From Hydrolagus affinis (Eukaryota): a stretch of 64,000 nt of DNA. Below are positions 26,391-61,800 of this stretch, one piece after another (position 1 is the first letter of the stretch; each line of letters opens with the position of its first letter). Both the position numbers and the translations under genes were made by a program. Below the pieces are notes generated by a model. It ran no database searches. It had not been told where the DNA came from and saw only the letters and a program-made list of their open reading frames with translations. The stretch lies in contig JAAILG010000533.1 of assembly GCA_012026655.1 (NCBI GenBank), positions 1-64,000 of the forward strand, in the 5' to 3' direction.

Positions 26391-26399
26391 TTTATATCA

Positions 26400-27250
26400 A
26401 TAGTATAAAACACCGAGCTGACCCTGAGGGTGGGGGCGGTAAGGAAGGAGCTCCTGCCCTCCCTGAAGGCGGTTGAGTTTGGTTCCTCCTCTTGTTTTTG
26501 AACAGACAATGCTTCGCTCTGTTAGCGTCACGCTCCTGAGCATGCGCGCTAACATGTTCTGGAAATTTCCCTGGCTGTTCAGAGGCGCTCGTGCAGGGAA
26601 TATAGGACAGACGCACAGGGAGAGAGAGACACAAGATAGACAGAGAGACACACAGGGCAGCGAGAACTGCTAATAAATAACTCTAGCAATTATAATTCAA
26701 AGAAAGAAAAGGACTGGAGAGAGACAGAGAGGGGTGAGGGTGGGGGAGAGATGAGAGGGAAGGTTTCTTTCAACTGATTCCAAAAGAAAATGCAATCTGG
26801 TAATTAAAAGACAACCACCACCTTACTTCCGGAATGATCTTTGGAGTCTAAACGCTGTTCACTGAGCCGATGTTTTGTGTGAGAGGATCAAGGCCTAGTC
26901 TGGTGGCTGAACATAACCGGAGTTAAATCGTTTAAACAGCGCGATTTTTTTCCCCCCCTCTCTCTTTATCTTATTTGCTGCGGTGACTTACTTGTATCAG
27001 CGGTCCCCTTCTTAAAACCATGGTGAAGAAGAATACTGTCCCCGATGGGTAAGTATGATGAGTCTTGACGATTTAGACGGATTTAGTTTACAGAAGTAAA
27101 AATATTAGGTGAGTCCAGGGCCTGAAATATCTACCAACAACAGGGTAAGTAACGAGCGTCGCCATGTTAACGCGGTGATTAAACAATGATTTGGTAAGTA
27201 AACGAAACCCCTTCACCATTGTAAGTATCGACGTTAGTAGGAGTTTCGCA
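26400..27250. promoter_or_regulatory. CpG-rich shared (bidirectional or overlapping) promoter region of CC2D2B and the DUSP11-like gene
   Basis: Local CpG enrichment; NRF1-like GCATGCGCGC near 26540; ETS-like ACTTCCGG at 26825; X-box-like GTCGCCATGTTAAC at 27158-27171; minus-strand donor-like sites at 26826 and 26991; plus-strand ATG at 27020. Confidence 0.6.
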
Positions 27251-30200
27251 TTTTTTTTGGAGGATGAGTTCTACGTAGAAAGGTAGTATATTATTTCATA
27301 GTGTGGAATGCCCTGCACGTTTTTTTTAAAAAAAGCTTTACAACACTGGGTTTCAATACCACATTTCCGAAGGAGCTCTTGTGTGTCTCTCATCAAATAC
27401 CTTCTCGGGAGCAGGTCTGCATTGACTTAACTGCGGTTCCTGAGTATTTTGAAGCGCAGATTTTATACGTCAATGATAAGTAACCAAATAAACAAATGCA
27501 GCTCATTATTTAAAAGATACGGGGGGGGGTGGGCGGTTGCAAACTCACATAACTGCATCATTTTCCCGCATTATGGGCCTATATTGGTGAAGATCACAAG
27601 CTTTTTCCTGCTTTGTCGGTTCTGGGTGGGAATAAAACTTCTCTCAAGCCAACCTTATTTACACGTGAACGGATTTCTATTTTGACCATTTACTTCAGCT
27701 AGTCCTGCAGGATAATGAATAAAACGGTGCCTTAATACATCTTCCAATCCTTTGGTGTAGAAGTTAACGGTAGATTTGAAATCATCTGTAAAAGGGGAGA
27801 TTCAAGGGCAAGAGAAACAATGCAATATAGTATTCACAAATGCCGTTTCTTACTACAACAACAACAACAAATTATAGATACTGTATTTAATGGATGAATA
27901 CAGAATGCTGAGATAAAGGGTCACACTTCATACTTGACTTGGTTGAAAGCAGCTCTTCTGGCCACAATCCTGCAAGGTATGGCTACATATCTACAATATT
28001 TCTGGAGATGCAGTTGAGCAACTTAATTGTCTGCTTTGCATTTTATGCCAAGAATATTACGCTGATGGTTTGAATTAAAGAGTATAAAAAGAAAGGAATC
28101 TGCTCGTATAACATACAGCAATGTTGGAGCATTATGGCTGGACGGTCAGCCTTCTCCAAGCATTCTGATTGTTTAAGGCAAATCTTTGTGTTTATACTAG
28201 CAATGCAGGACAGACATATGGCAATTCAACATGGCATCAGTCCAAAAGGAACATGTTAGAATTCTGGTGGTGAAAATTCATACACTTCTCATCTTATACA
28301 CCTGTGAAACTCTTGACTACGTGTCACCTGGAATTCACAATCCTTCAACTTGATTGGTTTAGTCAGCTTCTAGCTTTTTAGGTGCCGTTATGCTGTCACA
28401 TCCAAATGAGAAGGTTGTGTGTTTAGGCTCCACATTGGGACTTTGCAGTCGTAATTAGGCAAACTTTGCTATTCTATATTGCTTAAGGTATGTTCTTTTG
28501 GATGGCTGTTAAAAGATTCCACACCATTGTTCCAAACAATCTTGTTAAATTGGTTATTCACTTCGTAGCCCTTGTCACAAATTGTCCGCTGTGTTTGCCT
28601 ATCTCTACTACACTGTAATGTAGTCTTTTGTCCTAAGGTGCTATATTAAATGGAAGGATTATAATAAATATAATCCTTGCATTTGATACTGCACCTTCTT
28701 CCATGGTTGAGGTGTCTCAAAGCTCATCAGGGAATATATTGTAAAGTAGATTGACTATGTATTTTATGGTCAAACTGCTTATTATTTCACAAATGCCTGC
28801 TCATCTACAAAAGCAGCTGCTATTCTTAACAGTAATTATTGTGAAACAGTTGTTATATTTTGATGTAATAAAAAATGTTGACATTTTTAAAAGGCAAAGA
28901 ATTGGATGAAAAAGGACAATGTGGAAATAAAATTATTGATAGAAATTATAGCATTTTGGAAGAATACAAAACGGTTCGGATCGGCATCCAGTTAAAGTGA
29001 TGGTGTTTTACTAAATGAAGATTATTCAGCATCCAAGAAGACAGAACTGCTATATGGAAGGAACCTGCTTCCCAACAGGATTAAAATTTGTGAAAGGGTT
29101 GTGGTATAAACTAATAAAACTAAGAAATAATAGAAATTCCAAAAGAAAAAGGTAAAATGTCTTGCTTAAAAATCTTTAGACTTTATAGATTTCCACTGGA
29201 AATTTAATGGAACAGTTTAATAAAAAAAACAGTTTGTAGTATTTCTCAAAACATCAATGGACGTTTCTTCCCAGCGTAACCATATACTGTACTTGGACAT
29301 CTAGTAGGTAAATTGCACTTGCATGAATAAAAATAGTCATACACTTCCAGGTGTGATTGGTGTGTAATTCTGTTTTTTGAAGCTTCAATGCCGGTAGACG
29401 GTTTGAATCAGCTCTAGCATTTTCTAACAAGTATTTCTATACTTTTCTATTTTGTCACAAGAAGACTCACATTTGTTGCTCGTGATTTCTCAATTGCTGG
29501 CAACAAGTTATGCATTTCTCTTGAGCATCTTGATTACCCAGGAACTAGTTATGTGGTAACTCGCATGACCATTTATTCTGTACAGGATGTGCTAATTGAA
29601 ATTCTACAATTGCAGTGTTCACATCTGTTACAATGTGTCTCCCTGGCACTTGCAACTGTTGTCCTTTTGAATCTTCAGAATTTCTACAAAACTGATGTTT
29701 TTCTTAATCCATATAACTGCACCATTTCAAGATTGTAAACATGTTTTCAAATTAGCATACTGGGTCTAACTAATATTCTTTTAGTTGGCATTATCTTTTA
29801 TTCCTCTTCACTAATGTATAGATAATTTGCAATAACAAAACTGTTCATGATGTTTGCAGTAATATAATCTTATGCAGACAATATAGAACCTACTGATTGT
29901 TTGAATAGAACTGCTAGCCGCACAATAAAGAATCTGAAGCAAAATCGAAACACCCTAACGATGAAGAATGCTTGCTTCCTTGGGCCATCAGCCAAAACCT
30001 AAGGGAACATCTCTTTTTTTTGCAGAATGGTCAGAAAGGTCTCAAATTGTTCCTCAGGTAATGTAACCAGACCAGGTTTCAATATTTAGGCTACTGATCA
30101 TTAATTCCAAAGACTAGTTTTACAGCCAGTAAGAGACCAAATGTAATAAACAAAATGCAAAATACTGCAGATGCTGGAATTCTGAAAAACAGAAATCACT

Positions 30201-33200
30201 GGGAACACTCAGCGGGTGATGCAGCCTTCGTCACAACTGTTGGGAGGGATAGGCTTTTAAGGACTAACAGGGAGGCAGGGCAAGGAAGACAATTGAGAAA
30301 ATGTGGTAGAACACAGGAGATGATGGATTCAAGAATTCTTAATGGTGCTAAACAAAGGGGGGAATTGCAACCAAACTGGAAAGAAGAGATGTTGATAGAC
30401 AACGAGTGGGAGGGAATTGCCACAGAACATGCAGACCAGAGAGAGAAAAGGTGTGTCTGAGATCCAGATGATGTGATAATGGTCATAGAGGAGGGGGAGC
30501 AGGAAAGTGAGATGTTATGGTATTGAGAGCCAGAGAGCTGTAAGATCCCTACCAGATAGATGAGGTACTGTTCTTTGAGCTTGTGCTGTAGTTCATTGGA
30601 ACAGAGTAGGAGACCATGGGTGGAGAGATCAGACTGAGTTGGAAGGAGAGTTGAAGTGGCAAAAAAACGAAAGCTTAGGGTTGTGCTTGTGAACAGAGGT
30701 GTTCGGCAAATCAGTTACCCAATCTGCATTTGGTCTCCCCAATTTAGAGACAGCGAGTGCATTGAATGCAGTATACTGCATTGGTGGTAGGACATTTAAA
30801 TCGCTGTCTCACTTGAAAACGGAATCCTTTCTCCAAATCTAATAAATTGTAGGCTCCATCTCCAGCATGAAGAACAGGTTGGATCAGACAAATGAAATGG
30901 GCAAATTAAAGTTTTAAACAAAAAAACGAGCCTAAGAGTTACAAATGTATAGGTGAGTACATATTTAATGAATTTGGAAAAATCAAAATGAGCAGAAATT
31001 ATTATTATTATAAAATTACTTCAAATGGTATGGTATTGATATTTTCTTCAGCATTTGGGTGTGAGTTCAAAACTTGATTTACTAGCTATACTGGTTTTCA
31101 TAGAGATGTTTTAAATCGCTTACCCTGTAGTTTCACAGATTAATGGATATCTTTGTTTAATTAAAAGATGGCAATTGTAGCATGGGATTCATATGCAGAA
31201 TGGCAAATTTCATACCAAATAGAGTTAAGTATTTAAGGTATTGACACTGATGTAAATATTCAGATTTAGTTAATTAGAGAGACCTTTGATCTTGATTTTA
31301 AAATAATTATAATAAGGGATATTCATATGATCATTTCAAATAGCCCTTGCAAATCCAGTTTTAATTCTATTTTAAGTGAAACCCTTCAAACAGTTCCTAG
31401 GCCGGGGTTTTTTAAAACTTAAAAAATGCAGACTGGAAATAAAATTTGAACGAAATGGGCGGGCAGGTTGGTAGGGAGATGGAGAGGGCAGGCAGGTTGG
31501 TAGGGTATTTAAATACATACTGAGACTTTATCAGGAGAAATTCCACCTGGATATAGATTAACTATTAATATAACAACAAAACCAAATTACATTTATAATA
31601 ACGTTTCATATCCTGGAGAATTTTGCGAATTCTTGAATACAGCCTTAACTTTGAAGTCTGTTCTGTAAGATTACAAAAAGCAATGTCAAAATTGAGAATT
31701 CAACACTTTGGTAAATTCTGACCATTCTGAAATGCTACGTCAATATAGTTAATCTGGTCTGAGGTGGAATTTAATACCAAAGGTGCCTTTTGGGTATTCT
31801 GTTATCAATCCATTGAACTATAGGCAACAAGACATACTTTCTGACACTACAGACAGGTACTTCATATGAGGAACATAATCTACTTTTAGGTTTGTGGAAA
31901 CATTATTTGGCTTAACATTCTTGATACACAATTTGTGCAAAGCAATTGAAACATCTACAAAGGAACTGTGTCAATTTCTTTGGAGTAGGAAATATTAATT
32001 ACTGCTTAGCAAAAATTGGGTCCAGCTGTGTACATGAACTCTCAATGAAGAGGGAGTTACTCTTTCACAAGTACTGGTTTAAGCACTCTTGGGTGCTACC
32101 ATGTGTGAAGGGGGCTATATACAGTACAAGCAAGTTGTACCAGCCACAGGAAAGCACAGTCAACTTTTGTTCCTTTTATTCTTTGTGGGTCTTCAGAAAT
32201 TTAGTCTCCAGTAACTGAAAAGTGCTTTGCACAAGTTTTTTTTAAAGTTGTTGAAACTGGTTCCAAGGCTTAAAACTCCAGCAATTGTGAAGAGTAATTG
32301 TAAGAAGAGTAATGCTGAAATACATGAGGGAATAAGTGAAGTTTTGAATGGATCAGTTTTTGAACCCCTTTGGATACCACATAAATGTCTTAAACTTGTT
32401 GATAAGACTGATTCATGCAGAGGAATTAAGCAAATGAATAAGTTTGCAATGATTGAGTTTAAATTGGCAGAATTCTTTGAAAGGGATAGAAACAGATGGT
32501 AGATTTGTCATTTTAATGTTAGCTAATGTGAACAAATTGAAAGGGCAAACTAAATGTTGACATATAAAGCCAGAAAAAGAGTGCATATTTCCAGAGGTTA
32601 TATTAGACTACAAGTCACTGTTGGAATATTGGCCTCCTTGACACAAAAAAAAGGAAACATTAGAGAAGTTGCATAGAAAAGCAATAAGATTGAACTCAAG
32701 TGTGAATGGAATGAGCAAGGCTGTATCTAACCTGTCAGCTAATATTTCCTTACTCAGCAATTCAGCTTTGAAAACTACAAAATATACTTTTGAAACAAAT
32801 GTGATCAGACCATTGAAGTGCATTATTATCTTGTATGAAATATAGCAATGGCTTGATTACTTCACCACTGCGTGCTGACACATTGTTCCATCACAAATAT
32901 GCAGCTTATCTTATCCAACAAAACATGCTGCTTATCTTATGTAACACAAATACACTGCTGTATATATAAATATCTTCACGTTTCCTATCTTAAGAAAATA
33001 GGCAAAATAACAAATGGAGGAAAGAGACCAGAGTATTCTGACAGAATTGGCAGGGTGTCTGGGATTTCGGTTGAACATGGAGCTCAGTAGTTAGTGCACT
33101 CGCCTTGTACGCGAGAAACCTGGGTTCAATTCCAGGCAGGGCGAAACCTTGGCCAAGTTTCCTTACGCCACACACCTGATAATAATCACACAAAAAATGT

Positions 33201-36200
33201 TTTAATTGGTCATTTCAATCCATGACTGTATAACTGGCTGCTACATTTCGCCGACAAAATACAGTCAATTCACTTTACATCATATTCTGTGAAGTGCTTT
33301 GAGACATCTAGAAGACGTAAAAAGCGCTATATCAAATGCAAGGATTATCAGTAACATCTCATTCAAAAGAATGCTTCCAACATTGCAGTATTTCCACAAG
33401 TGTCATTTGAGGGTCAGGTGGGAGAGGCTATATTATCAGGGAATGTCTCCAAAGTTTAAGGGAATGATCAGGAAAATTAGATACGGTTTGATAGTGACCG
33501 CTTTTCACATAATGTCTACAATGATCTCACATTGATTCCTGGGACACCAGGTGTTGGACACCATTCTCTTGTCATTGGTTTATATTAGAAGTGGAATGTG
33601 CAATTTTCCCTAAAATTCACTGATTGATGTGTTGCCCACCTTTTGGGTGCCACATTTACATCTTAACATTTTTGTAGATGTTGATGTGTTTTACAAGATG
33701 TGCGTAATGTACATTAAGAATCCTTCAATCTATCCAATATTTGTACATGCATTGTTTTATACTGTATTTTAATTCTAGTTTAAACAAAAACTTGCAGTGA
33801 GGGGAATAAAAGTGTGTGTGTATGTACATATTTAAATATTTAATATTTTTATAATGCTGTAATGGTGGAATATTAGTTAACCTTGTTAATCTTATTTTCC
33901 ATATTTTGAAAATTACCTTGCCTATTTCTTTAATTGATTATTATATGGGATGAAATCTGGGAATATTTTTTTTAAAGTTGTGTATCTGAATAATGCATTT
34001 CTTAACTTAATTTCATGTTTGATAATTGTCTTTGTACATGGTGTACATCATTTGAATGTCTATTAATGCAAAACTATTCTAGAATTTATTTGGCAGTAAA
34101 TTTTTGAGGTGTTTTACTTATTCGTTATTTTTTCCTAATGCCCATCATCTCATTCTCATGTGCTTATTCTCAAAAGAAAGGCAGCATAGTTTTAGCTAGT
34201 TATAGTATAGTAAAAGCCCGTTTATCCGGAACCCGATCAACCGTAACTTCCGTATAACTGCATCGCAAAATAAAAGGTCCACATTTGATTAACCGGAATT
34301 TATCCAGAAAAATACATTTTTTAAAAAATTAAAAAAATTGCGTTTTCGGCCGAATATCCAGCATGCGCTTTAACCGGCATTGGCCAGGTCACAAGGGTGC
34401 CGGATAAATGGGCTTTTACTGTATAATGGCCTGCTCAAAAATAGTCTTTTTGTTGTCTGTAGTCTTTCATTTATGTTTGATTTAATGGCAACGATTGCAT
34501 GCATAATAGTATCTGTCAACAGTAGGTCAATTCTACTTATTATTTAAAATACTGTTTTACTTATCAAAGTGTTTCTCACATTAACACTGATTGTATGGAT
34601 TGATCTGTTACGAGATATGCTGTATGTCAGTCAACAAGACCGAGGCCCTCCTGAAAGTGTCGCACCAGTGCCTCCACACTTCAGACACTAGCAGTATCAT
34701 CCTCCATGGATGCACACTCCTTATTCAATCCTCAACTGTCTTTTCTCCCTCATGACCCTCTGCCATCCCTCACCTCCACAACATCCCTCACCTCCACAAC
34801 ATACCTCAACTCCAACCACTACCTCACCCCTCAGGTTGCTGAAATTCTTATTCATACCTTCATCACGTCCGGGCTCGACTATCCTAATGCCCTGCTTGTC
34901 AGCCTTGCCAATTCCTCCCTCCATAGGCTGCAGATATCCAGAACTCTGCAGCCAGTGTTCTTCTCTCGCCACAAACTCCACGATCCTATCTCCCCCATTT
35001 TTGCCTGACTCCATTGGTTTCCCACCATTCAGAGGATTCAATTCAAGATCCTAGTCCTCACTTTTAAAGCCATCCATGGCCTTGTCCCAGCCTATCTGCG
35101 ACCTAACCCCTACCAACCTCTTTGCTCAGTGGGCTCTGGCCTGCTGCCCCACCATTGGCAGGCAAGCCTTCAGCTACTCTGCCCCCAACCTTTGGAATTC
35201 CATCCTGCAAACCCTCCACCTCACTCCCTCCCTAGCCTCCTTCCTGCCTCAAGACCCTCCTCTTCAACAGTGGCAGCGCTCACTCCCCTACCCTTCCCTC
35301 TATCCTCCCTGATGCCGATCCCAGGTCAGGTCCGAAACACTGACTGTTCAGCGCATTAGAACATCCTCCTGACATGAAAGACACTACCAATGTAATTTTG
35401 TTGTTGTCGTAAAAATTTTAATTAAGCCTCATTAATTTCATATGTAGTAAGTTGGGGTACCAATATTTAGTGAAGTGTAATTCCACTACCATCCATTTGT
35501 CTTGTTGTTTTCCCTTTCTCACACACACTGACCTCTGCTGATCTTTACAGCTAGATCTTTCTCCAAGACCTGATGAAAAAATTTTGATTTAAGATTTTTT
35601 TCTGTACATATTAGGCTAAGGACGTTATAGGAATAATTAAAAGGATGAGGACGAAAGATGATGAAATAAACAATGAGTAAAATATTTTGGAAGTAAATAA
35701 GTAACATTTTAAAGTTTCTTAGAAGCATAATGTGAGTAGCAGTACAGAACTGAAGAATTGGTGAGTCTGCTAAGATTTAATAGATGGAATGAAGAGCCTG
35801 AAGAGAATCAGTCCATTGAAAAGAAGACTTCAAAAACAGTTTTTGTAGTGTAAGCTTTACTTCTGTTGTAAATCTTTTCCTTTTGAAAGGATCTATCAAG
35901 ACTAATGGGCTTTCTGGATTCATGCAAATCAGTTTTTTGAATTCATTTGATGTATTTGAATGCATCAATGGAATGTACCTCATCATATAGCATGTGTATA
36001 ATTTGCAAATAAAATCTATTGTATCCAGGTATGCCGTTATGCTTTACTGTTGAATCAATTTCACAAGAACATCTTTTAAGATTCTGTTACATAGTGTGAC
36101 ATTATTACTTTTTTAATATTGCATTTTACCACAATGTTTAAATATTGGTATAAATAGTTGCTGGAGGTAGAAGCTAATGTTTGTATGTATAGTTTCTGGA

Positions 36201-39200
36201 GATAAATGGCTCAAATGAATTTTGTACTTCGAATAGTACTGTATGCAAGCAATATGTAGTTTAATACAGTTACATGTAATGTGATATTCAGTATATTAAA
36301 ACAGTGCTCCCTAAATAAGGTAATTAATGATTGACTAAGAATTTTCAGTTAGTGTAAAACTTTATAAAGTGGATCAAAGCACTGGAATGCATTTCAGCAG
36401 TGTTTAACTAAAAGAAAGTACTGTTCTAACTTTGTAGAAGTAATTGAAAAGGCTATTTTGGGAATCCAGTGTGCAGTTTTAGGCATCCTAGTTTCAAAAG
36501 GACATTGATGCAGTGGAGAACATATTTTAAAAAAAAAGTTCTAAATTGTCAAACGTTACAGAAACGAATTTATGGTGGGGAAGAAAGCTGATGGAGGACT
36601 TTGTCCCTTTTGATAATTCAATCAACATTAAGCAGACTTGGCCTTTATTTATAGAATTGTAGTTGGTGGTCTAAAATTAACGAGTGACAAAGTTAAAGAC
36701 AAAGCTGGAGATATATGAGGTGAAATACAATTTTTTTTAGAGCAGTGGATATATAAAAGAGACTTAGTAAATTTAGTTGGTAATGTCAATTTAAACTTTC
36801 AAAAAGATTTGAATTGAAGGTTCGCTGCACATTCACAAATTTGCATACAAAACTTAATTATATATTTCTGCAATCAACAGAAATGTGCACAATTAAGGAA
36901 TGGGCATGGATAGCCAGGTTTATTTGATCTAAATTGGAGAGGAGATTGAGGAGAAATTGTGAATGATAGTTCTCAGGATGAGAGGGGAGTTTGAGGTGAG
37001 AAGTGCTTACCAACTGAGTAAACTAACATTGGAAGGATGTCATAGTGCTTTGACTATTCAAAAGTTAAAAAGTAAATCCAATCCTTGACCCATACTTAAC
37101 AGTAAATGCACAAAAATGGCCATTAATAGATAAATCTAACCAACCAATGTTCAAAAACTACAGTTTATGTCACCCTTGTTCTGAAAGAACTGTCCTTATA
37201 ATGGTTTTAAACAGAAATGCACTGAGAGGAGATCTTTTGGAATTACAGTGGTAAACGAAGCCATCTTGAAAAAACACGTTTAAATTAGATTCAAAGTTTT
37301 GATATGGAAGTTATTAGCTCCATATTACACTGACCAGATTGTGACCAGAATATTGAAAGAGGGCTGAGCTATTCGCATCCTAAGAAATGTGCCATGTTGT
37401 TTCCTTTATTGCTTATCCACCAAACTTAGTATCAGAAAACAAAACAACAGTGTTTCTATATCGCATTTCCAAAGCATACTTTATATCTTACGTAAATATT
37501 TTACTGGCTTCACATGTCAAAAATTATTTTGAAAGCTGCTACAGAAAGTCTACGGGTGGTTGGGGTGTTTGTTTTATTAATAATAATAATCATTGCCTTT
37601 GGTATAGCGTTATCACATCATCGGGGACGTCTCAAAGTGCTTCATAGAATGCAGTGAATTGACCATATTTTGTGGACAAAACAATGTAGCCAATTGTGCA
37701 CAGCAGAGTCCCATACACATTCGTGTGACCACATTTTTTTAAGTGAATATTACCCGCAGAAAAGAAATCTTCAGATCGACTAACAACCAGGTTCCTACTT
37801 ACTGCTAGATAAACAGAGGCTGTGGAATAAAGAAACTTGCCCAACATTTCACGTTGGAGAATCAAACCCAGGTCTTCGTGCAGTTCTAACCACTATGCTG
37901 CAGAATTCCATGACAATATATTCAATAACAAACTGAAATATTTTGAATTGCAAAATAAACCCACACCAGAAGCTAGTAACTCACTACATGAAATAAAGTA
38001 GTAAACTGTGCCATATGATGCTTGTTAAGGTTACTCAAAATTCACAGCACAAATTTTTATGTAAATTAGAAATTGGGGTTTGTGGTAAATAAGTGCGAGA
38101 TTCCAGGATCATTTGATTCTGTATTCCATGTTCTCCATTTAAAATCCAAAGGGTTGATCACTTATTAAAATTAAGATCTGATCAGCGCCTTGGGACATCC
38201 TCTCGATGTGAAAGGCGCTATATAAATGTAAGTTTTGATTGATTGATTGATTGATTCATACAATGCCAGCTGAAGTCAAATCTCGGAAAAATGGATATTC
38301 ATTTGTATTATAACCATTTTGGGGGATTGAATTAATTCACTTATATGAATTGTCAAGGTGTATTTCCTAACATTTTGTCAATATTGACATCAGCTCTACA
38401 TCTGTAGTTATAATTTATGGATTGTTCAAATGATCTAATCATAGCAATCAATTAAATATATTCCAGTGATGGCAAATTAGGTGGATTGCACAGTTAGGCT
38501 ATTGACAATGTATCTGTTCATTTGGCAGCTACCCAGTTTACTTTCTGGGGCAATCCCAGGTACAGTATAAATGTCAGTCAAACTTAATAAAATATAGGTC
38601 ACTGGTACAGATGTAGCACATCACACCAAGCTCTTCAAACCCTTCCTAGTGGTACAGGTATTTTGTAAATGATTACAAAATGCATCAGTTTTGAAGATGA
38701 CGGTGTTTGTGTCATTGAGAAATCAAGCTATCTTACTAACAAAGGTGCTTTTTGCTTATATTGAACATTCTAGCAAACAAAAGCTTAAAACAAGATAGTC
38801 TACTGTAGTAGGCACAAAAGTAGGCAACATTTTAAATAGAAAGATGTGAGTAATTAAAATTGAAAAAAATCAAATAAATTCAAACTAAGGAGATGTAAGC
38901 CAAGGACCCATCTGCTTCAGGTGGATGTTAAAGATCCCATGTTAAACTTTTTTTGTTCATTTCATCTTAAGATTCTATCAAAATTGTTTCCTGTAATCTT
39001 AACAAATGTTGTTGTTTGTCTTGTCAACATGAGGGAGAGAAGAGGCTTCACCAAATTCTTCCTCATTCCATTGTCTTTGGAGTAGCAGTAATCCACTTTG
39101 ATGGGACAGATTCCAGTTAATACTCCTCACTTTGTGACACTGGCGATATTAGCTCCTGGTTTCTGCATTTACATTCAGTACTATGGATCCTGCCAATTTT

Positions 39201-48463: not shown

Positions 48464-49501
48464 ATCACTAACTTTAATGTACTGTATATTCAACTTTTTT
48501 ATTTTGAGTATGGTAAAGACTTCTCATATATTTCATTACAGTTCTAGGCTTTTACCATGCAGCTTGTTTTTCCAAAAATGAATATTGAAGGACCAGAATT
48601 CCTCTAAAATGCCTTTTACTTGTTACATGGACATAGAACTGTGTAGATGTAAAGATGTGTTGGTTTTATTAGTATGATGTAAGATGAAAGCAGAAATGTA
48701 CACTAATTTTTTTGTAAATTCAGTATGAATATAAACTCATTGTCTGTTTCCGGTTTGTTTCTTGACTATCCAAGCACAACTGATTGTAGACTTTTTAAAA
48801 AAAAAAAAATCATCAGACTTTAAGTGTATCTAATATTGTACATTGCTTATGTGGCAGGAATTCACTGTCTATTGCAAATGATCAGTCAACTTTAATGTTA
48901 TGTTGTACATAAACAGAAAGGCAATATACAGTACTCTGTGAAAGGTTACTGCTGTAATGCTGTACAATTCGTACTACCGATCAAGTTGATTTTCATCATT
49001 ATAATATTCTAAATTGACCAAATCAATGAGCTAGCCCTGCTGAATTTCATAGAGACTCACTAATCAAGTCATATTACAATAAATTCCTTAAAATAAATCA
49101 GACTGTGCAATTTTTTTTTCTTTCCCCTCCCCAGAGTCTGGTTGACTTTGGTTAGATGGGCTGTGATATCACACAGGAAATGAAGCTTCAGCAACAAGCT
49201 TCCACTTTGCACCTATAATGGAAAGCATCAAAAGAATCTCAAATGTATTTGAATTCTGGTAAAATAAATCAATAAATTGTTGAAGCATACTGCTTGTGTG
49301 CATGCTGGTGCATACTATGTTAATCTAGAAAGGGTGGAATACAGAAAGATAGAAATTATTCTGTAATACCATTTTATAAAATTTATGATTACTCAATTGT
49401 GGAAAATTCTCAAATTCTGTCTTAATTTGGAAGCAGATTCTTTTTAAAAATTGCAGAAAACTTTTAGGTAAAATTAATGAAGAAATCACGTCTGACAAGC
49501 C

Positions 49502-52500
49502 CTAGAATTTTTCAAGAAAGGCACACATAGGGTCCTCTGGTCTCTGACGCTTTATCTTGTAGGTTTCAATTTCTGCTTCCATTGATTGCTTGCCATCATG
49601 CATGCAATTGTAAGGCCGTTTTCTCTCATCTAGTTTCATTAGCTCATCCACTTTCTTTAACTGTTTTCCCTCTGCGGAAAGAGCCTACAAATAAATTGAA
49701 TGGAAAACACATTTTAAGAACAATTATTTAGTTTACTTTTTTTATTACAATTTTTTTTAATCTTCAAATGCTAAAGCAACATACATAGTCATTCCACTTT
49801 CATTCCACATTCTGTAAAGTGCATAAACATTTACTGAAGGGAATATGGGGAATGTAAAACTATGATTTGAAAAATTAGTACACTGTTCAAAGAGGGACTA
49901 ACTTCCAGTGAACATTCAGTTGTTGAATGTTGTTTGACCACACATGGAAAACCTTCTTGAAAAGTCATCAGGTCCATTATCTCCTGCAAAAAAACACAAT
50001 TTACCATTAAGTAAGCTGGCTTGATTTTAAATATAATATGCAATTTCTATGTACATTTTCATACCTGTGCTTTTCTACCACTTTCACCGGAACAGTATGA
50101 ATGCTTGAGAAAGGAATGGCAGCACTTGTTTCCCCAATTTCCATTTTTCCAATATGAACCCCATACAGTCTAAACAGGAATAACAGCATATTTGGTTAAC
50201 AAAACATGCCACAAAACATGTGATTATGTAAAGGAGCAGAAGTGAATATTAACAAAATATGTTGAGCTTTAGGGGATTGACCGTGAACTGGGGAATTCTC
50301 ACATTGATAGCGAGTTACAAAACAGGATGTAGTAAACTAACCACACATAGGTCTGTAACATTTGTTACAAAACTATCGTTTAAATCTTTGCATGATTGCT
50401 TTAACTAATTCATATCTTTACAAGATTAGACTATCATATGTCTACAACATTAGACCCTCTTGGCAGAGTTGGCTTAGCTTCAGGAAGCAGAAACATCAAA
50501 CATAATCTAAATCAATGTTCTGTTTTACTATTATTAATCCTACAATACAATTGTGAAATACATCGGCACAAAAAATCTTGCCTACTGTATGATTGTTAAT
50601 GTACACATCCTCTTCATATTTTGACTTAGCAGTAGCCTTCAAATGCCTTTGAATGAGCAATCCATGCTTGGAGTATTCTGTGTACTCCTCGGTCTGACCC
50701 AACAACAGCATTCTTGAGGGTGGTTCCAAATAATCCTGCACTCCATACTAAAACAAAACACCATTTCATCAAAAACACTTGTCTTTTTTTCCTGGAATAA
50801 ACTTCTTTTTAAATGCAATATTTCAATAGTGTTATTACCTCAAACCCCTCAACAGCTTTGGGACATCCTCCCAATGTAAAATACACAATATAAATGCAAT
50901 TTATTGTTATTGCTAAAAATGTAATAGAGTAAGAATTAAACTGCACACCGACTTGCCTTTTCAATAATGCTTTCCCGTTGACCCTTTTTAAACTCTTCAT
51001 CTTTTATTACGAATGATTTATGCAACATCTCAAGTTTGGTGGGATCTGACTGGAGATGCACATCCACTCCATGCTCGTAGGCTTCCCAGGCAAACACTTA
51101 AAGAGAATCAAAAGTGTGGATTCAGGTATAAATTACATATGGTACGCAAGAACGAATGAGATTCACTTAAGTTTCATACATACATACATTGTGACTGAGT
51201 CATCATGGAGACGTCACCCATTAATCGCAAAACATTTTCAGCAATGTATCCATTTCTAAGAAAATACAAATTCATGTCAACATACTTTGCAAAATCATAA
51301 TGTACCCATACACTGTCCAAGGTTATGAACTGCAGTGTTACTGACGCAGAAGTTGATTAATGGTACGTATTAGCTGTTCTCAGAGAATGCAGTACTGTGG
51401 TAGGTTTGCTTCCATTTGCCTCACTGTCACTGATGCTACAATGTGACAGTGACAAATGTTTTAGCCTAAAAATAGAGCCATAGATTCTGCTCTTGATTGC
51501 TTATGTAGTGCTTAGTGATTGAGGTGATTGCTTATCCAGTGCCTTGGGACGTCCTCCCGACATGAAGGGTGCTCTATAAATGTAATTTTGTTGTTGTTGT
51601 AGTGGCCCTACCCCCACCCCCCGATTGTAAGATGCACATGAATAGTGACATCAACAAGGTGTGATTTTAATGGCGGAAATCCTGTTAGAAGCTGACATTG
51701 CCAAATCATATTGTTTTTAATGAGGATTTTTTTTGGTCAGGCCTCCTGCTTCTGATTGCTGCTCATTGTTATTGTGCCATTCAATATCAAGTACTTTCAG
51801 GCCAGTTATCACCAATACTAAGAGTCAAAATGTTTCATTGTCTTGCAATGACCACCCTTATATTTTAAATAATAAGACACTTTTTTTCAAGAGAAGGCTA
51901 TCCACATATGAATAAGACATCTAATTTTAGGTCTACCTGTTTGAAGAACCAAAATATATTTTTTTACATTCAAACATTCTATCGAAACCATCCATAAGAA
52001 ACATGAAAACAAAATCCTAAAAACACACTCATTGGGTTTCTTTCCCGAATATGGGTTCTCTCTCATTGATCTGGAGTAGGGGTCGTAATAAGCAGAGTTC
52101 AAATCCAGGTTCTTCAGGTACTGCGATTAAAAAGGCAAAATTAGTGATTAGCATTATTATGGGAGACCGCTGTGCTCAATTGGTTGCTGCATTTCTCCCA
52201 CAGTCAATTAACTTTACAATGTATTCTGTGAAGCACTTTGAGATATCTCGAAGACCTAATAAGGCTCTAAATCAAATACAAGAATTATTATTATCAATAA
52301 TTGGAGAATTTTAAAAAGAATTTCTAACTTGAAATAAATCTACCAACCTTAGCTGTATCTTCACGGATTCTGAGATTTCGAACAGTAATTCTCATTTTGG
52401 AATCTACTTTTTGCCCAGGCATATCAAACTCATCTGCATATTTGTCTTCATCCTTATCCTTGGCATCTGCATCCTGAAGGCGCAATACAAATACAGTGAT

Positions 52501-55500
52501 TAATGTCATCACCCAATTACTAAAATACAAGTAACCTGCATTAATTCGGGAGGGAGATTGTTAACTGAATGGAGGGGGCCATGGATAGAGCCTTAAGGTA
52601 CACCACAGGTGACTCTGATAGGGGAAACCATTTGTGGAGACAAAGTGTAAAACATCCATTTTACTTTTAATCTCATAAAACCCAGGATGAAGATAGATTA
52701 TTGTCCAAAATACAGAATAACATTTAATGGTATAAATTACCTCTTCTTCATCTTCCTCCTTCCCAGGACTGATTTGCTTTAGGAAAAAAAACATTAAATT
52801 ACACAATCATTTACATTTCACAAAAAGATACCTGCATCCAGATAAGAATTAAGATACAATTCCAGTATAGCAACAAAATCAGCGGTATTTGCTGATATGC
52901 AACACTCGCTAAACATGTTAATTAGCTAAAAGTTTATTTAAACCTTTGAAATGCAGGGAAACTGTTGGAATTAATTTTCGCATAGTACAAGGGACTAATA
53001 TTTTAATAATATTAACTTTTTTTTAAATGCAGGTATGCAATAAAGGATTATTTTACCAATAAACTTAATTCTGCTTCAAGATTGATTGATTACCGACACT
53101 AAACTGCTAACTTTGGAGCAAGGACAAATCAGAATTCTGATTTCAAGACATGTTTACACTAACAAGCAATGCTTATCCCATTTTAGAAAGCAAATAATCA
53201 ATTCAAAAAAATATTCACCACTGATTTGAAATAGGTTGGTAAGTCTAGGATAAATTTGACTGAAGTCTGGACAGATGTAGAATCTAGAAATTGCAGAAAA
53301 AAATATATTTCGTTAAGAGTTCACAAATACTCACCACTTTGTTTGGTACATTGTCACTTGATACCCCTTCCTGGATTTTCCGTGTTTTTAACTGTCTCCT
53401 AGTCTGCCATGTAAAATCCAGATATGAATGAAATTTTTACACATGTAGTTTGATAAAACACCCATATTTTTAACTGAGGCCTTGAGCCCAAATTAATCCA
53501 ACAGAAAGGAAAAGAATGTAATTATGTATTACAGGTGACAAAAGCAAGATTTAACTGTAAAAAAAAGTAAGGCTTCCATAGAGTTTGTTTTAATGTGAAA
53601 TCAATGTATTTATTTTATTATTCAAATTATTAATTAATAATAGATTTGTTCACAATATTTTAGAAAAATATGAAAGATTTGACTGCAGAATTTATTTAAT
53701 GAGAGACCAACGGTTATCAGAAAAATAAGACATCATTCTTCAGGACTAGTACAAAGACAAGACAGTAATTGAACTAGTAACAAATAAATGAATATTTCTG
53801 AAGTTTTTGAATTGCTCATTTCCATAGTTTCCTTACAATGTCAATTTTTTCGTATTCTGCTATGATCTTCTTCTGTTCCTCTGGATCATAACCATTCCAC
53901 TTGTCTCTTTTGCCATCATAATCAAGGAATAGCTGTGGCTGAGTGTACTCATCTGGAGCTATATTTGTTGCAGTGTACTTTGCTCCCACTTTTCTCGGCC
54001 TCTGCAAGAGTGCATTTATTTTCAGAATTTCCCATGTTACTTTATCTAAATCTCTCTTGTGATGTAAAGCCAGAGATAGAGAGAGAAGCCAGACGGATGG
54101 AAAGACAAACGGAGAGATTGATGGAGAGACAGATGGAGAAACAGAGCTGCACTGGCATGGTGTGTGGGGAGAGAAGGGATATTAATATGTGTGGGCTGAG
54201 AGAGTATACAGTACAATAGTAACAGTACAAATCCTGATGGAAGAAATTTTGGTTAGTGCATTTCATTTTGCACAATGTTCACTGATTTTGTATCAACAAA
54301 GATGCCAATTAGGGAAGGTAAAAGTCTCTCAACAGACATTTCAAAAATCCTATTTAACTTCTAGCTTTGCCCAACTCTAGCTGTACTTAAAAAAACAAAA
54401 ACTGCTGGGAACACGCAGCAGGTCAAACAGCAACTATGGAGAAAGGGAAAATGAAGCAACGTTTCAGGTCCACGACCCTTTGTCAGAACTGTCCACAACG
54501 AGTCGTGGACCCGAAACGTTGACTCACTTTTCCTTTCTTCCTAGATGCTGCCTGACCTGCTGAGTGTTCCCAGCAATTTCTGTTTTTGTTTCAGATTCAC
54601 TAGATTCACTAGACTAGGTACAGAATGCATTACAAGCACTCAATATCCTGTCCAGTGAATGCTTTCATTTCAACTAACCGTTTATCCAATTTCAACACTT
54701 CTTAACGCCCACAGAGAGCAGCAGCAGCATGGGTTGACTTCAATAGAAAAACTGCAGAGGACAACAAATGTAAATGAACATACATCTAAACAGAATAGCT
54801 GAATTTTTGTAACCTGCAAATTAATAAAAGAAAACGGAACCGCCTACCTCCATACATTCTTTCTTCGCATGTGTAATAGCACCACAATTTTCACATGCCC
54901 CTCTCCTGTATCTGGTTGTATGATTACACTATAAAAAACAAAAATGTAACTTTTCTGAAGAAGCTACCAGGTTTATTTTTACTGTACGTTTTTCCCATTA
55001 GCAACTTTGTATTCATAAGAGAAATATCTGGACAGGGAAGAATTAAGACATTGTTTATGGTTACACGGTACTTACATGGTATAACAATGAATGATTATGT
55101 AGTGTAGCAGATATTTTATATGCAATTTGCATTTATATAAGGTATTCTGCAAATACTCACCTTCAAATCGTGTATATACCAATCTTTTATGGTATTATAG
55201 TTGTATTGTTTCTCCAGGTGAGGGCGTTGATGCTTCAGAGAAGGTGTGTTTGTGCTGTCTACATACCATGGTACAGTTGAAATATACTCAGGAATATGTG
55301 GATTTATATCCCTTTAATTGAAAAAAGATTATTTCACTCAAAAGCTAAAAAAAAAGGGGGCAACATCTGAACATAATTGTCAAGTTCTTTGAACATAAAT
55401 TTGGTTTTGACCAAAATGGTATTGATGCATACAAAATGAATAATTAATCTAATCTAAAGAAACTCTCGCTTTCACAATCTTAGAATGTCCATCTACAAAA

Positions 55501-55846
55501 TACAGTCACTCCACTTTATGGTAACATTTTATTGTTCTTATTATTAATAAGATTTTTCAAAAACGTTGTGAGCCACAAAGATTTGTAAAGAATGGGCTAC
55601 ATTTTAACCAAATAGCAGCATTTAAACTAAAATAAAGACATTGAAATAGCAGTATCAAAATAAAGTCACCCATCCTCTATCTTAAATCATCTTCAACCAG
55701 AAATTAAATATGAATTACTTCCCATCTTCATCTGTTTCAGCTGGTACCAAGCCCAGCTTTCTCTGTTCTTCTACGTCTTTCTTTTTTCTCCGAGCTTCTT
55801 TTAGTCTTTGAGCTTCAGCAGATTCTGGCAAAGCGGCAAATGCCAT
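49502..55846 (-). CDS. SLU7: Pre-mRNA-splicing factor SLU7-like protein, divergent paralog, 528 aa
   Basis: Exons 55846-55719, 55311-55161, 54928-54848, 54001-53837, 53403-53335, 52776-52741, 52473-52348, 52120-52029, 51255-51188, 51096-50957 (GC donor), 50747-50586, 50169-50065, 49983-49903, 49684-49502 (1587 nt, open). Peptides: EEQRKLG..DINPHIP, zinc knuckle [73 protein letters not shown]. The symbol denotes the family. Confidence 0.9.
54391..54590. mobile_element. Inverted pair of Penelope-like terminal fragments
   Basis: Arms at about 54391-54477 and 54501-54590 are imperfect reverse complements (CTGCTGGGAACACGCAGCAGGTC / GACCTGCTGAGTGTTCCCAGCA). Confidence 0.7.
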
Positions 55847-57639: not shown

Positions 57640-58020
57640 ACGCGAATGCAGATTATTAAGGGGTAAAACAGAGTAGATAGTGGGAGACTGTTTCCCCTGG
57701 TTGGAGAAACTGTAACCAGGGGTCACAGACTGAAGATTAAGGGTCAGCCCTTTTGCACTGAGTTGAGAAAAAATTTCTTCATTCAGAGGGTAGTGAATTT
57801 ATGGAATTCTCTACCCCCAAAGGGCTGTAGATGCTCAGCCCTTAAACATATTAAAGACTGAGATTGATAGATTTCTTATGGATAAAGGGATTAAGGGATA
57901 TGGTGATAAGGCGGGTAGTTGGAGCTAGAATAGATCAGCCATGATCTTATTGAATGGCGGTGCAGGCTCGAGGGGCCAAATGGCCTGCTCCTAATTCTTA
58001 TGTTCTTATATGTTCTTATG
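57640..58020 (+). mobile_element. CR1 LINE 3' end
   Basis: Degenerate end of ORF2 (TRGHRLKIKG..RKNFFIQRVVNLWNSLP) and terminal TTCTTATG repeats. Confidence 0.88.
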
Positions 58021-58084
58021 AGAGTATTGCCCTTTATGCATCACGTTGGAAGTTGCTGTCATGTCACAGAGGAGCGACGTGCAG

Positions 58085-58180
58085 CCAACCAACCATCCAA
58101 CCCAACTAACTAACCATCCACCCAACTAACTAACCATCCACCCAATCAACCAACTATCCACCCAACTATCCAACCCAATC
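58085..58180. repeat. C/A-rich tandem repeat, about 20-bp unit
   Basis: CCCAACTAACTAACCATCCA repeated with variants. Confidence 0.8.
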
Positions 58181-58235
58181 TACCGACCAATCATGCCACC
58201 CGACCAACTCAGCACCATGTCATGTCGCTGCTCAC

Positions 58236-58888
58236 CGCCAGGCGGCTCCTCGGTGGCTTGCCAAGGCAAACGGCGGCTCTCGGGAGAGACGCCGATCTCG
58301 AGAGAGACGCCGATCTCGATTGGTCGCCGGGAATCGGCGCGCGACCAATCAGAGGCGGGGAGGCATACTAGGTAAGAATAAATGCAAGATGGCTCCTCAT
58401 ATAAAACCAAACGCCGAGCCGCTCCGCCCGCCTCGCAAAAAAGCACGATTTTCGGCCGTTTTTAAATACCCTTTTCTGTTCACACCGTGTCCTGAGGGTC
58501 AGCCGTTCAAAGTTTGGTACCTAGTCGCATTTTTTTTAAAAAAGGGTCATTTTTTTTCCTTTCACCCGAAGAGAGAGAGAGAGAGTGTGGAAAAAAAAGG
58601 TGGTGGTGGTGTAATGGGGGTGGGGGGAGAGCTCTCTTCTCTCTTGCCACGAAGAGATGAATTAAAGCGCCGTCTCGGGGCCTGAGCTGCGCGGCCTGGT
58701 CCAGATCCAGGATATCCAACCAGTCGCCTTGGCCTTCAAAGCGTGTGTGTGTCCCCCCCCCTCCCCTCCTCCTCCCCGGCAAATGGTGGGATAGACAGCG
58801 GCATCGAACAGGGTTCGCAGCGAGTCGGCGGCAGCGGCCTCCCTTGTTTCTTTTTTGTTCATTTTATTAAATGCAATAAAAAGTCCAC
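58236..58888. promoter_or_regulatory. CpG-island bidirectional promoter for the SLU7-like gene (minus) and BTAF1 (plus)
   Basis: High CpG density; minus-strand donor GCG|GTGAGC at 58235; TCTCG-n-GAGA motifs at 58278 and 58296; inverted CCAAT pair at 58318-58350; GC box at 58352; YY1-like CAAGATGGC at 58385. Confidence 0.7.
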
Positions 58889-61800
58889 ATGGCGGTGTCG
58901 AGGTTGGTGGCTTGATCTTTCTCTCTCTCTCTCTCTGTCTTGTCTCTCTGTCACTCTCTCTCTCTCTCTGTGTGACTCTTGTTTCCTTCTCTCTCTGATT
59001 CTTCTCTCTTGTCTCTCGCTCTGTGTGATTCTTCTCTCCGTGTGATCTCTCCCTGTCTGTGTACGTGTGTCTCTCTGGCTTTTCTTGAGGTTGAAATAAA
59101 ACGCGAGCTCTCTGTGTATATGTGTGTGTGTGGGTGGGGGGCTGTTAAAGGCCCCGGTTTATTGCTGAGCCCGGCGTCAAGTGACAGTTTTGAACCATTT
59201 GAGGGAGGGGTGGTGTGGTGGGGAGTGGGGGGGGGGGGGAAGAGAGGTTGTCTGCTTTTTTTTTGATGGTGAACTGACTGTGAGCCCCGCGGTTGGCGAT
59301 GGTGTGGCCGCTCACAATAGGTGATGTCTGTCTGGCCTTTGTTGAATGAATGTGAGTTGTTAAGAGTGTGTGAATCTTGAAACTTCACGAGTGTCTTGTC
59401 TCCAGCGCTCTGAGCCTTTTCAATGATCGATGTTGGGGCCTAGCCGAGACTGCCAACCAGCCGAGCGAGGGCTGGTGTGCCAGCGGGAGGACTTTTTAAG
59501 TGTGCTTTTCAACAAACTGCCTGGGGGAGTTGCAGTGAATGTTGATTGTTGTTGTTGTTATTTATTATTCTGTTAAACAGTCACTAGAATTTTTTTTAAC
59601 CTCCTTCGCTGCCACTGTGTAAAGATCGACTTGAGAGCTTTACTACCGTTTCAGCGGATGGGGATCGATCGATGATCTGGGCGCAAAGTGACCGATTGAC
59701 GTTTGAAATCATTTGGAGTCTGACAACGCGCTTTTTTTTAAAAAAAGAGTTAATTTACGTATCCTTTGTACGTGTGTTTTTTAGCCGCTCTGACTTCTTT
59801 TAAAAAAAACTTGCAATAATTAATGTGTGTCGAAATAGGGTCCCAGAAACGTCCTCTTAACATTTGCACGTGTGATGCTTTCAAACGAGGAAATCGAATG
59901 ATCCATGTGTTAATTGGGATGGATGTAATTTTTTATTTTTTTTAAAAAAATGATGGATAACTGGGAATACCAAACTCCAGGAAATGCACGATCTGCTCTT
60001 GGAAACTTCTCTTGGGTTTGATTCATCGGAACGGAAGTGACGGTCTGTGGAAATCCAATGTTTTTTCAAACTCGACTTTTTCCCCTATTTTTCTCCAGCC
60101 CCCCGCCCCCCCCAGTGATATTGCGTGTCATTGTAGCAGAGCATGTTGTTACCTTTCTGTTGCAACTCCTTTGTGATTCTTCCAGTTAGTTGCTGGGATG
60201 TGAACAAAAGGGGGGCTAATGTGACACTTGTTTCCTCTCCTCCCCCCCCCCTTTGTGCAAGGAGACAGTGTTTTAGCTTTGTCTTGATAATCCGATGGTG
60301 ATTCCTGTCAAATTCGTGTCCAAATAATACAAATATAATTCTCGACTTTTTTTCCCCTTTTCTTGCCCCCTTCCCTGTTTGTCCTTATAAATTACTCCCA
60401 CCCAATATCCACCAATTCTGACGACCTGAAACGTTAACTCACTTGAACTTTTCAGTTCCTCACTCCATAGACGCTGCCTGACTTGCTGAGGTTTCCGTGC
60501 GAAATATGTTTTTATTTTAGATTTCCAACATTCGCAATATTTTGCATTTTGTTTACTAGATATAGATATTTGAGTGCTGAACCTACAGCAGTAACCTTAT
60601 GAATTTAGAGACTTTACATTTAAAACCATGAACTTGATGATTTAAAACAACTTCTGTCTAACTATTTACAGTATTAAATCCTCTTTGTTTGGTAGTTGTA
60701 CTGTGACTAACATGATGTAATTTCACCTCCTCAAATCACTCAGTTTAAAAATGGATGTGAAATGGTACATAACTGGAAGTAATGAACCTGTAAAATAGGG
60801 GTTCAGATGAATCAAAATCATAAGACAGAAGTTGAGTGCTATATTAAATTGCAGCCTTGTTTTCTATAATCAGTTTTACTCAAGGGAACCTAGTTGAGAA
60901 AAAGGATCATATATTGCTGTATGTTAAAGTGCTGAAGATAAATAAATCTGGTTGAGAGTATTAGCTTGGTGATACCTAGCTTTATTTTGGAAAAGCATAG
61001 GCAGAAAGGAAGATTGGGGAGTTAGGAGTTTTACAAATTAAATAAGTCTTACAAGACTGTAGAAGAACTTATGATTATATCAACACATGATGCCAGAAGA
61101 AAGTTGTAGTTGGAGCTTGACAGAAATCAGAGTAAAATTTTTGAGGAGCAATCATGTGTTTTTTAATGCAGAAACAGATTGAACGCCAAAGGTGAGGAAA
61201 TTATCATTTGTTGGCTTACAAACATTTTCACACTCGCGATTGCGATATCTATGCAAGTGAGATATTGGAAAATACCACATATGGTAGAAGAATTCAAATA
61301 TTGGATGTTATAGATTAAAGAATTACTAAGGGAAATTGTGTTTGGAACAAATGTTGAAAATTGAATTATATAATAGATTTTTATATCAACATCTTTCTAG
61401 TAATTCTTTCTTGGAATTGAACCCAGGTCTCTTGTTTTTGTGGCGAATGTTCTTGACCACTGAGCTGCAGGACTCCACGTTTTATTTTAAAGAATGCATT
61501 TGTCAGTTTAAAAGTTAGAACATCCTTACCTAAGTGAATGCATTTTAACTTCTCATTGGAGGAAAAGTGGGAATCTGAAATGATATGCCTATGTTTTAAA
61601 ATATTGGTCAAAATAGTTGTGACAGTTTTCAGGAATGCTGTTTATCAAGCTATTTTATTAAACTAAACAGCAGTGAAATGTTTGACTTTGTTTCACATAG
61701 TTCTTTGACGATTGGTTTACCAATCATTGTCTATTGAGTACAAGCATTGTCTTGTCATCATTCACTATTTAAAAGAAGCCCATTTCAACTGTATTTCTGA

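Follow-up and report, generated by a model that had tools for sequence, protein, structure and literature searches.

Two duplicated RNA-processing genes between CC2D2B and BTAF1 in a chimaera: a DUSP11 paralogue with a changed active site and a probable ohnolog of the splicing factor SLU7

We analysed a 64,000-nucleotide stretch of the genome of the chimaera Hydrolagus affinis (GenBank assembly GCA_012026655.1, contig JAAILG010000533.1, positions 1 to 64,000, forward strand; hereafter the window), which carries a DUSP11-like gene (DUSP11L) and an SLU7-like gene (SLU7L) in the gene order CC2D2B (−), DUSP11L (+), SLU7L (−) and BTAF1 (+). This order and these orientations, proposed in an earlier reading of the letters alone (the sequence-only reading), were all found, and DUSP11L and SLU7L are both intact, with converging stop codons. 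With a probability of roughly 0.7, we read the window as the 10q-like copy (GGA6/LER15, ‘1-alpha’) of an ancestral block CCNJ-CC2D2-DUSP11-SLU7-BTAF1-CPEB, in which both genes would be ohnologs (copies retained from a genome doubling) with differing fates. DUSP11L would most likely have arisen at the second, jawed-vertebrate genome doubling, and it has kept its cysteine-phosphatase core while losing the His and, in nearly all members, the Arg characteristic of RNA 5′-tri/diphosphatases. SLU7L would have diverged in a burst, lost a Lys-rich stretch and survived only in holocephalans, as far as our searches show.

The DUSP11L gene has the following features in the window (aa, amino acids):

27020..48463 (+): DUSP11L coding sequence, 11 coding exons, 387 aa, one open frame, all introns GT-AG
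27020-27048, 42321-42396, 42749-42880, 42974-43097, 44159-44219, 44494-44540 (+): DUSP11L coding exons 1 to 6
44635-44710, 45599-45703, 46304-46393, 47429-47545, 48157-48463 (+): DUSP11L coding exons 7 to 11
44159..44219 (+): exon of the P-loop, which retains Cys128 and Arg134 but has Asn130 where the family carries His (human His154)
44635..44710 (+): exon with position 168 (equivalent to human Arg192), which is Arg in the window and Gly in most other clade members
46697..46767 (+): alternative stop-containing exon with strong splice sites, yielding a 257-aa short form

The predicted protein is 92.3% identical over 391 columns to Callorhinchus milii XP_007894641.1, and its best matches in the PDB are the human PIR1 structures. 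The catalytic domain aligns with that of human PIR1 without gaps (E 5e-70), so that residues 128, 130 and 168 correspond to human Cys152, His154 and Arg192. An alignment-based structure model of the C. milii orthologue (P0148; predicted score in the local distance difference test, pLDDT, 76.5) folds like PIR1, with best Foldseek matches at a template modelling (TM) score of ~0.78 and a root-mean-square deviation of 2.2-2.3; a single-sequence fold (pLDDT 36) was set aside. A conserved N-terminal Tyr is lost in DUSP11L, and the C-terminal tails reach ~200 residues in chondrichthyans and up to ~830 in amphibians (P0205-P0211, P0217, P0374). The C-terminus of the short form matches C. milii isoform X2 (XP_007894649.1), and the exon at 46697-46767 is a candidate poison exon or the source of a short isoform. 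Only repeats were recognised in the 15.3-kb first intron (27049-42320), which follows a 29-base coding exon and in which a C1QTNF-type remnant was not searched for. Open frames and constraint ruled out a pseudogene for either DUSP11L or SLU7L, and since both genes have introns (11 and 14 coding exons, respectively) neither is a retrocopy.

The active site of DUSP11L differs from that of other DUSP11 proteins across a whole clade. A homologue search among representatives clustered at 50% identity gave 150 proteins (158 with eight earlier matches), and the 144 that cover the catalytic domain were placed in a quick tree together with the window protein. There, 24 rows form a DUSP11L clade with a Shimodaira-Hasegawa-like (SH-like) support of 99. 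Both residues of the catalytic CX5R motif are present in all rows of this clade (Cys 24/24, Arg 24/24), while the P-loop His, found in 119 of the 121 other rows, occurs in 0/24 and is replaced by Thr (9 rows), Asn (8), Gly (4) or Ser (3). DUSP11L does not match HCTHGXNRT, the family consensus of RNA triphosphatases (PMC5785229), as the second His is missing in 24/24 clade rows. At the site of Arg192, a residue suggested to confer beta-phosphatase activity (PMC12058148), Arg is present in 116/121 other rows against a single one of the 24, namely that of the window and not that of C. milii. Because the P-loop His is lost and Arg192 largely so, a changed substrate is likely for DUSP11L. Judging from these residues, we consider it on balance probable that the protein no longer efficiently converts 5′-ppp RNA to 5′-p RNA, and that it acts on another substrate or serves mainly as a binding protein.

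The PIR1 structure paper reportedly shows that His154 is needed for activity. One point weighs against this functional interpretation: the DUSP11L of the window itself carries Arg at the Arg192 site, possibly through reversion or an error in the sequence. Over the 185 residues of the catalytic domain, the window and C. milii proteins differ at four positions, two of which are signature sites (at 130, Ser in C. milii and Asn in the window; at 168, Gly and Arg, respectively). The clade-wide change in the active site had no place in the sequence-only reading.

Phylogeny shows DUSP11L to be an old paralogue, widespread in jawed vertebrates. In a tree of 38 rows, the DUSP11L clade (15 rows) received support of 100/99 with a branching order like the species tree, and lamprey DUSP11 fell outside the jawed-vertebrate rows (99/96). 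Named members include those of sawshark, coelacanth, Xenopus (dusp11.2; dusp11.2.S), Rhinophrynus, axolotl and caecilian and, among amniotes, gecko, parrot, platypus, echidna and dog; the gene is also present in many sharks and rays. Coelacanth (contigs of 149.9 and 55.4 Mb) and axolotl (1,740 and 1,713 Mb) each carry canonical DUSP11 and DUSP11L, on two different contigs, which rules out DUSP11L as the sole jawed-vertebrate orthologue. The split from DUSP11 predates the divergence of chondrichthyans and osteichthyans. No ray-finned fish was among the named members in this library clustered at 50% identity, in which eight clade representatives were left unnamed; since the library was clustered in this way and those eight were not looked up, the absence is no evidence of loss.

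SLU7L lies on the opposite strand, downstream of DUSP11L, with the following coding exons:

55846..49502 (−): SLU7L coding sequence, 14 coding exons, 528 aa, open frame, one GC-AG intron
55846-55719, 55311-55161, 54928-54848, 54001-53837, 53403-53335, 52776-52741, 52473-52348 (−): SLU7L coding exons 1 to 7
52120-52029, 51255-51188, 51096-50957 (GC donor), 50747-50586, 50169-50065, 49983-49903, 49684-49502 (−): SLU7L coding exons 8 to 14

The GC-AG intron follows coding exon 10 (window position 50957, −). The protein is 88.5% identical to C. milii XP_007894628.1, and the C. milii RefSeq records for DUSP11L and SLU7L lie on one 28.27-Mb contig. The Pfam Slu7 domain scored above its curated cut-off in five of the nine exons scanned, and the CCHC zinc knuckle pattern is kept (Pfam zf-CCHC_4, E 3e-4, under its cut-off). 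SLU7L shares 56-59% identity with canonical vertebrate SLU7 proteins, which are 74-94% identical among themselves. It lacks the Lys-rich C-terminal stretch seen in the SLU7 of vertebrates and echinoderms, with a maximum of 4-5 Lys per 20 residues as opposed to 9-12, and tblastn with shark and coelacanth SLU7 found no Lys-rich exon in the window. SLU7L keeps 148 of the 168 columns that are invariant in 31 other SLU7 rows. Differences between the window and C. milii proteins fall at 20/296 vertebrate-invariant columns compared with 37/232 others (Fisher p 0.001); SLU7L is still under constraint. It would most likely serve, alongside a canonical SLU7, as a second-step splicing factor that is auxiliary or restricted to certain tissues.

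No SLU7L was found outside chimaeras: beyond the C. milii protein itself, the best 120 of 4,234 full-length matches to that protein were all 51-63% identical, shark SLU7 included. No SLU7-like (SLU7L) protein of any elasmobranch or bony vertebrate was among these 120 matches, and a search with SLU7L exon 2 matched only C. milii (94%). In a tree of 27 rows (LG+G4), SLU7L fell outside canonical jawed-vertebrate SLU7 with a support of 98 in the SH-like approximate likelihood ratio test (SH-aLRT). In the SLU7 trees, P0042 (a vertebrate SLU7 of 590 aa) groups weakly with coelacanth (89/84); by eye, it has a few residues in common with SLU7L. A house sparrow ‘SLU7-like’ protein (P0011, 569 aa) stands apart from the main SLU7 cluster of birds and may be a recent bird duplicate.

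The neighbourhood of both genes recurs in paralogous chromosome segments. In the skate, March5-1 (4.48 Mb), Btaf1 (4.69 Mb) and Dusp11-1 (4.74 Mb) are placed on Leri_15C; Ccnj-3 (29.51 Mb), Slu7 (29.62 Mb) and Cpeb4-3 (29.77 Mb) on Leri_11C; Cc2d2a-2 (90.23 Mb) and Cpeb2 (90.58 Mb) on Leri_1C; and Stambp (0.67 Mb) on Leri_35C (PMC10115646, Supplementary Information (SI) Table 10). These chromosomes are given as the four copies of linkage group I/Q, with LER15 (=GGA6) as 1-alpha, LER35 (=GGA22) as 1-beta, LER1 as 2-alpha and LER11 (=GGA13) as 2-beta (PMC10115646, SI Table 3). Published gene lists group SLU7, C1QTNF2 and CCNJL on chicken 13 (8-9 Mb); CPEB2, C1QTNF7 and CC2D2A on chicken 4 (76-77 Mb); CCNJL, C1QTNF2, C5orf54 and SLU7 on human 5q33; ENTPD1, CC2D2B and CCNJ in pig; and March5, Cpeb3, Btaf1 and Fgfbp3 in mouse. 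Because skate Dusp11-1 adjoins Btaf1 on chromosome 15, the BTAF1-DUSP11L linkage is at least as old as chondrichthyans, and the Ccnj-Slu7-Cpeb4, Cc2d2a-Cpeb2 and Btaf1-Cpeb3 groupings show that SLU7L sits between the anchor families that also enclose SLU7 on the paralogous chromosome. By a crude estimate, a gene landing at random would have a chance of 0.0004-0.0009 of coming within 300 kb of any of three blocks of this kind. A link between DUSP11L and SLU7 in elasmobranchs was ruled out, since the two lie on different contigs in 12/12 species with a single-species record for both. The proposal that both window genes are ohnologs is well supported for DUSP11L, which forms a clade from chondrichthyans to dog, coexists with DUSP11 and lies beside Btaf1 in skate; for SLU7L it is probable, on microsynteny.

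An origin by genome doubling is very likely for DUSP11L. A small-scale duplication in the jawed-vertebrate stem would agree with the tree, which yields only an age bracket, and the connection of the 2p13 DUSP11 to a GGA22-type segment rests on Stambp on Leri_35C and on human gene order, with the chromosome of canonical DUSP11 not seen in skate. This alternative is nonetheless improbable, given that the two gene types lie on different chromosomes in coelacanth and axolotl, that LER15 and LER35 form the alpha/beta pair within a single linkage group (PMC10115646) and that human DUSP11 maps to 2p13.1 (PMC12058148). Several observations do weigh against a second-round ohnolog within the proposed block. 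A grouping of lamprey DUSP11 with DUSP11L, which bears on the first versus the second round, was not rejected by the approximately unbiased (AU) test (p-AU 0.106, with one partial lamprey sequence), and the canonical DUSP11 rows of the 38-row tree are not joined in a supported clade. Among chondrichthyans, no canonical DUSP11 could be named, the clade P0242/P0246/P0251/P0265 being a candidate only, and in skate only Stambp was placed on LER35, where canonical DUSP11 was not seen. CCNJ and CPEB3, both beyond the window, were placed in pig and mouse only and in no chimaera.

SLU7L, with its position mirroring the paralogous SLU7-type blocks, is favoured as a first-round ohnolog of SLU7, which we regard as likely. 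The trees themselves are less firm on this point: exclusion from canonical SLU7 falls to 81/71 under a mixture model (20 rows), the SLU7L stem measures 1.28 compared with end branches near 0.1, and groupings with elasmobranch SLU7 (p-AU 0.204) or with P0042 (p-AU 0.238) were not rejected. Weak mixture-model support, the long stem and the AU tests together leave SLU7L undatable from sequence alone. SLU7L has 2/5 elasmobranch-derived and 12/20 canonical-vertebrate-derived states, the SLU7 trees contained no lamprey, hagfish or amphioxus SLU7, and an ohnolog would need two independent losses, in elasmobranchs and in bony vertebrates. Such losses would be unneeded had SLU7L arisen in holocephalans alone, as a duplicate of SLU7 that kept its introns, moved to this block and then evolved fast, an origin also compatible with its presence in holocephalans only (next matches listed, 51-63% identical) and with the unrejected clade with elasmobranch SLU7. 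It would require a chance landing between the CC2D2/CCNJ and BTAF1/CPEB anchors (crude chance <0.001), and the best trees put SLU7L outside all canonical jawed-vertebrate SLU7; we find such an origin unlikely. We give similarly little credence to SLU7L being the only SLU7 of chimaeras, whether through reciprocal loss of the 5q-type copy, in which case it would still be an ohnolog, or as a relocated orthologue. RefSeq does name XP_007894628.1 ‘SLU7’, without ‘-like’, and neither a canonical chimaera SLU7 nor any second C. milii SLU7 was seen among the 120 of 4,234 matches or the 15 of 39 cluster members listed; these observations also count against the first-round ohnolog. However, RefSeq suffixes can mislead, as coelacanth DUSP11L lacks ‘-like’ and the canonical copy bears it, and alteration of 20/168 invariant columns together with loss of the Lys-rich stretch would, on general grounds, be implausible if the gene were the sole copy of such a core splicing factor.

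DUSP11L is not known in humans. A single human DUSP11 is described in PMC12058148. The sequence-only reading had both duplicates lost from this locus on the way to humans, which holds in part: as DUSP11L is intact in dog, any human loss of it was late, and a joint loss is not borne out, SLU7L needing separate losses in elasmobranchs and bony vertebrates. We take human CC2D2B to start at about 95.908 Mb, a coordinate that would make the antisense transcript ENTPD1-AS1-201 its head-to-head partner. This long non-coding RNA (lncRNA) spans chr10:95,873,761-95,907,842, beyond the ENTPD1 3′ end and on the other strand, at a locus that also contains CC2D2B and CCNJ (PMC7676266). Because it is placed relative to CC2D2B as DUSP11L is in the window, we tentatively propose that this CD39-antisense lncRNA could be a fossil of DUSP11L, a suggestion made from position. 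The ENTPD1 neighbourhood is derived, since skate Entpd1 lies 30 Mb from the block (PMC10115646). These gene names had no match in four supplement files of PMC5577775, on lncRNAs derived from coding genes, nor were the genes found in the searched portions of the supplement of PMC8302630 (for one file, the first 4 million characters). The combined scenario, in which DUSP11L, present from sharks to dog, changed its job after the second doubling and died late in humans, leaving ENTPD1-AS1-201, and in which chimaeras keep a first-round ohnolog of SLU7, is possible but doubtful as a whole.

The sequence-only reading had further suggested that promoters shared with neighbours perhaps helped both duplicates to be retained. 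The intergenic regions that bear on this are:

26300..27300: CpG-rich stretch between the head-to-head genes CC2D2B and DUSP11L, a candidate shared promoter; CpG observed/expected ratio 0.79, against 0.38 for the window
58000..60000: CpG-rich region common to the 5′ end of SLU7L and BTAF1; CpG observed/expected ratios 0.83 and 0.80
56231, 56586, 58236 (−): splice-site candidates, possible donors of the SLU7L 5′ untranslated region (UTR)
48464..49501: gap of 1,038 bases between the converging stop codons (48463, 49502)
49078, 49092, 49263, 49271 (+): poly(A) hexamers in the gap between DUSP11L and SLU7L
48498, 48665, 48891 (−): poly(A) hexamers in the same gap

The start codons of SLU7L and BTAF1 are separated by 3,043 bases, and the CpG ratio at 58000-59000 is 0.83, compared with 0.38 for the window. 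Shared promoters are plausible for both head-to-head pairs, as implied by the CpG-rich gaps. As a cause of retention, promoter sharing is nevertheless unsupported and seems unlikely: although both genes stand head-to-head with a neighbour across CpG-rich DNA, BTAF1 and DUSP11L remain linked in skate at a distance of about 50 kb, yet no SLU7-like protein of an elasmobranch or bony vertebrate was among the matches listed, and both proteins show coding constraint, which promoter sharing alone leaves unexplained. At their other ends, the 3′ UTRs of DUSP11L and SLU7L may overlap by a few hundred bases, judging from the poly(A) hexamers.

The window as a whole is low-GC vertebrate DNA, in which exon translations are 94-100% identical to C. 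milii proteins, with some differences, which fits a holocephalan close to C. milii. Its other features are:

1176..23096 (−): coding exons of a CC2D2-family gene, from Pfam domains and open frames, continuing past the left window end; the upper bound, 23096, is a candidate exon only
1176-1391 and 1465-1722 (−): CEPT76_peptidase (Pfam) in the CC2D2-family gene
18861-19130 (−): DUF5523 (Pfam) in the CC2D2-family gene
26992, 26827, 25223 (−): candidate splice donors at or near the head-to-head region of CC2D2B and DUSP11L
58889..62122 (+): BTAF1 exon 1 (58889-58902, ATG at 58889) and exon 2 (61999-62122), open frame, continuing past the right window end
603-728, 6487-6728, 10214-10463, 19613-19853, 25518-25762, 33078-33361 and others: copies of a repeat with a tRNA-like head

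We infer from position that the CC2D2-family gene is the B paralogue; its 5′ end was not found in the window. BTAF1 exon 2 matches Mot1-type ‘Helicase-like protein’ PDB chains (E 1.5e-5). The only match in an Rfam scan of the window was the tRNA-like repeat head at 33078-33138. It belongs to a family with many copies that are 70-87% alike, probably a short interspersed element (SINE).

Both genes are already annotated automatically; what is probably new is the clade-wide active-site change and the probable ohnolog of a core splicing factor. The open-licence literature gave no description of DUSP11L or SLU7L as a paralogue, and the ‘-like’ product name of DUSP11 appeared in it only within a gene list, although the full ohnolog lists in the skate and proto-vertebrate supplements may name them. 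DUSP11 sets the level of 5′-triphosphate RNA that is sensed by RIG-I, and a widely conserved second copy without the RNA-specific residues, intact in Xenopus and dog, could show how those residues set substrate choice. Core splicing factors have usually returned to single copy after duplication, so a retained SLU7 ohnolog would be unusual; SLU7L also offers a natural deletion of the Lys-rich stretch of SLU7. The four-gene block helps in reconstructing a piece of the gene order of ancestral vertebrates over the 10q, 5q, 4p and 2p paralogons. Were ENTPD1-AS1-201 truly a remnant of DUSP11L, an immune-regulating lncRNA would gain a protein-coding origin.

The skate genome paper describes 68 chondrichthyan differentially retained ohnologs (PMC10115646), which represent the same kind of event, in which cartilaginous fish keep a genome-doubling copy that other lineages have lost. 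Unlike those cases, DUSP11L is not restricted to chondrichthyans, and SLU7L seems to be absent from skate. Compared with the canonical second-step splicing factor SLU7 (human 5XJC_Z), SLU7L shares the Pfam Slu7 domain, the CCHC zinc knuckle and the C-terminal motif (E 4.5e-190), but it sits in a different chromosome block, misses the Lys-rich stretch and is seen only in chimaeras. DUSP11L has the same cysteine-phosphatase fold as BVP, a baculovirus phosphatase, and as the mRNA capping enzyme in its triphosphatase domain; capping enzymes, like nearly all members of the DUSP11L clade, have no Arg192 equivalent (PMC12058148), whereas BVP keeps HCTHGXNRT (PMC5785229), which DUSP11L does not, and DUSP11L, unlike the capping enzyme, has no guanylyltransferase domain. 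The entries named dusp11.2 or DUSP11-like in other vertebrates, known as automatic annotations, are orthologues of the window gene. The closest characterised relative, human DUSP11/PIR1 (PDB 4MBB, 4JMJ, 4NYH), has in common with DUSP11L the fold, a catalytic domain that aligns without gaps and the catalytic Cys and Arg. DUSP11L differs from it in having Asn, Ser, Gly or Thr for the P-loop His, mostly Gly at the Arg192 site, loss of a conserved N-terminal Tyr, Pro/Arg/Asp-rich tails of 200-830 aa and a location in a 10q-type block.

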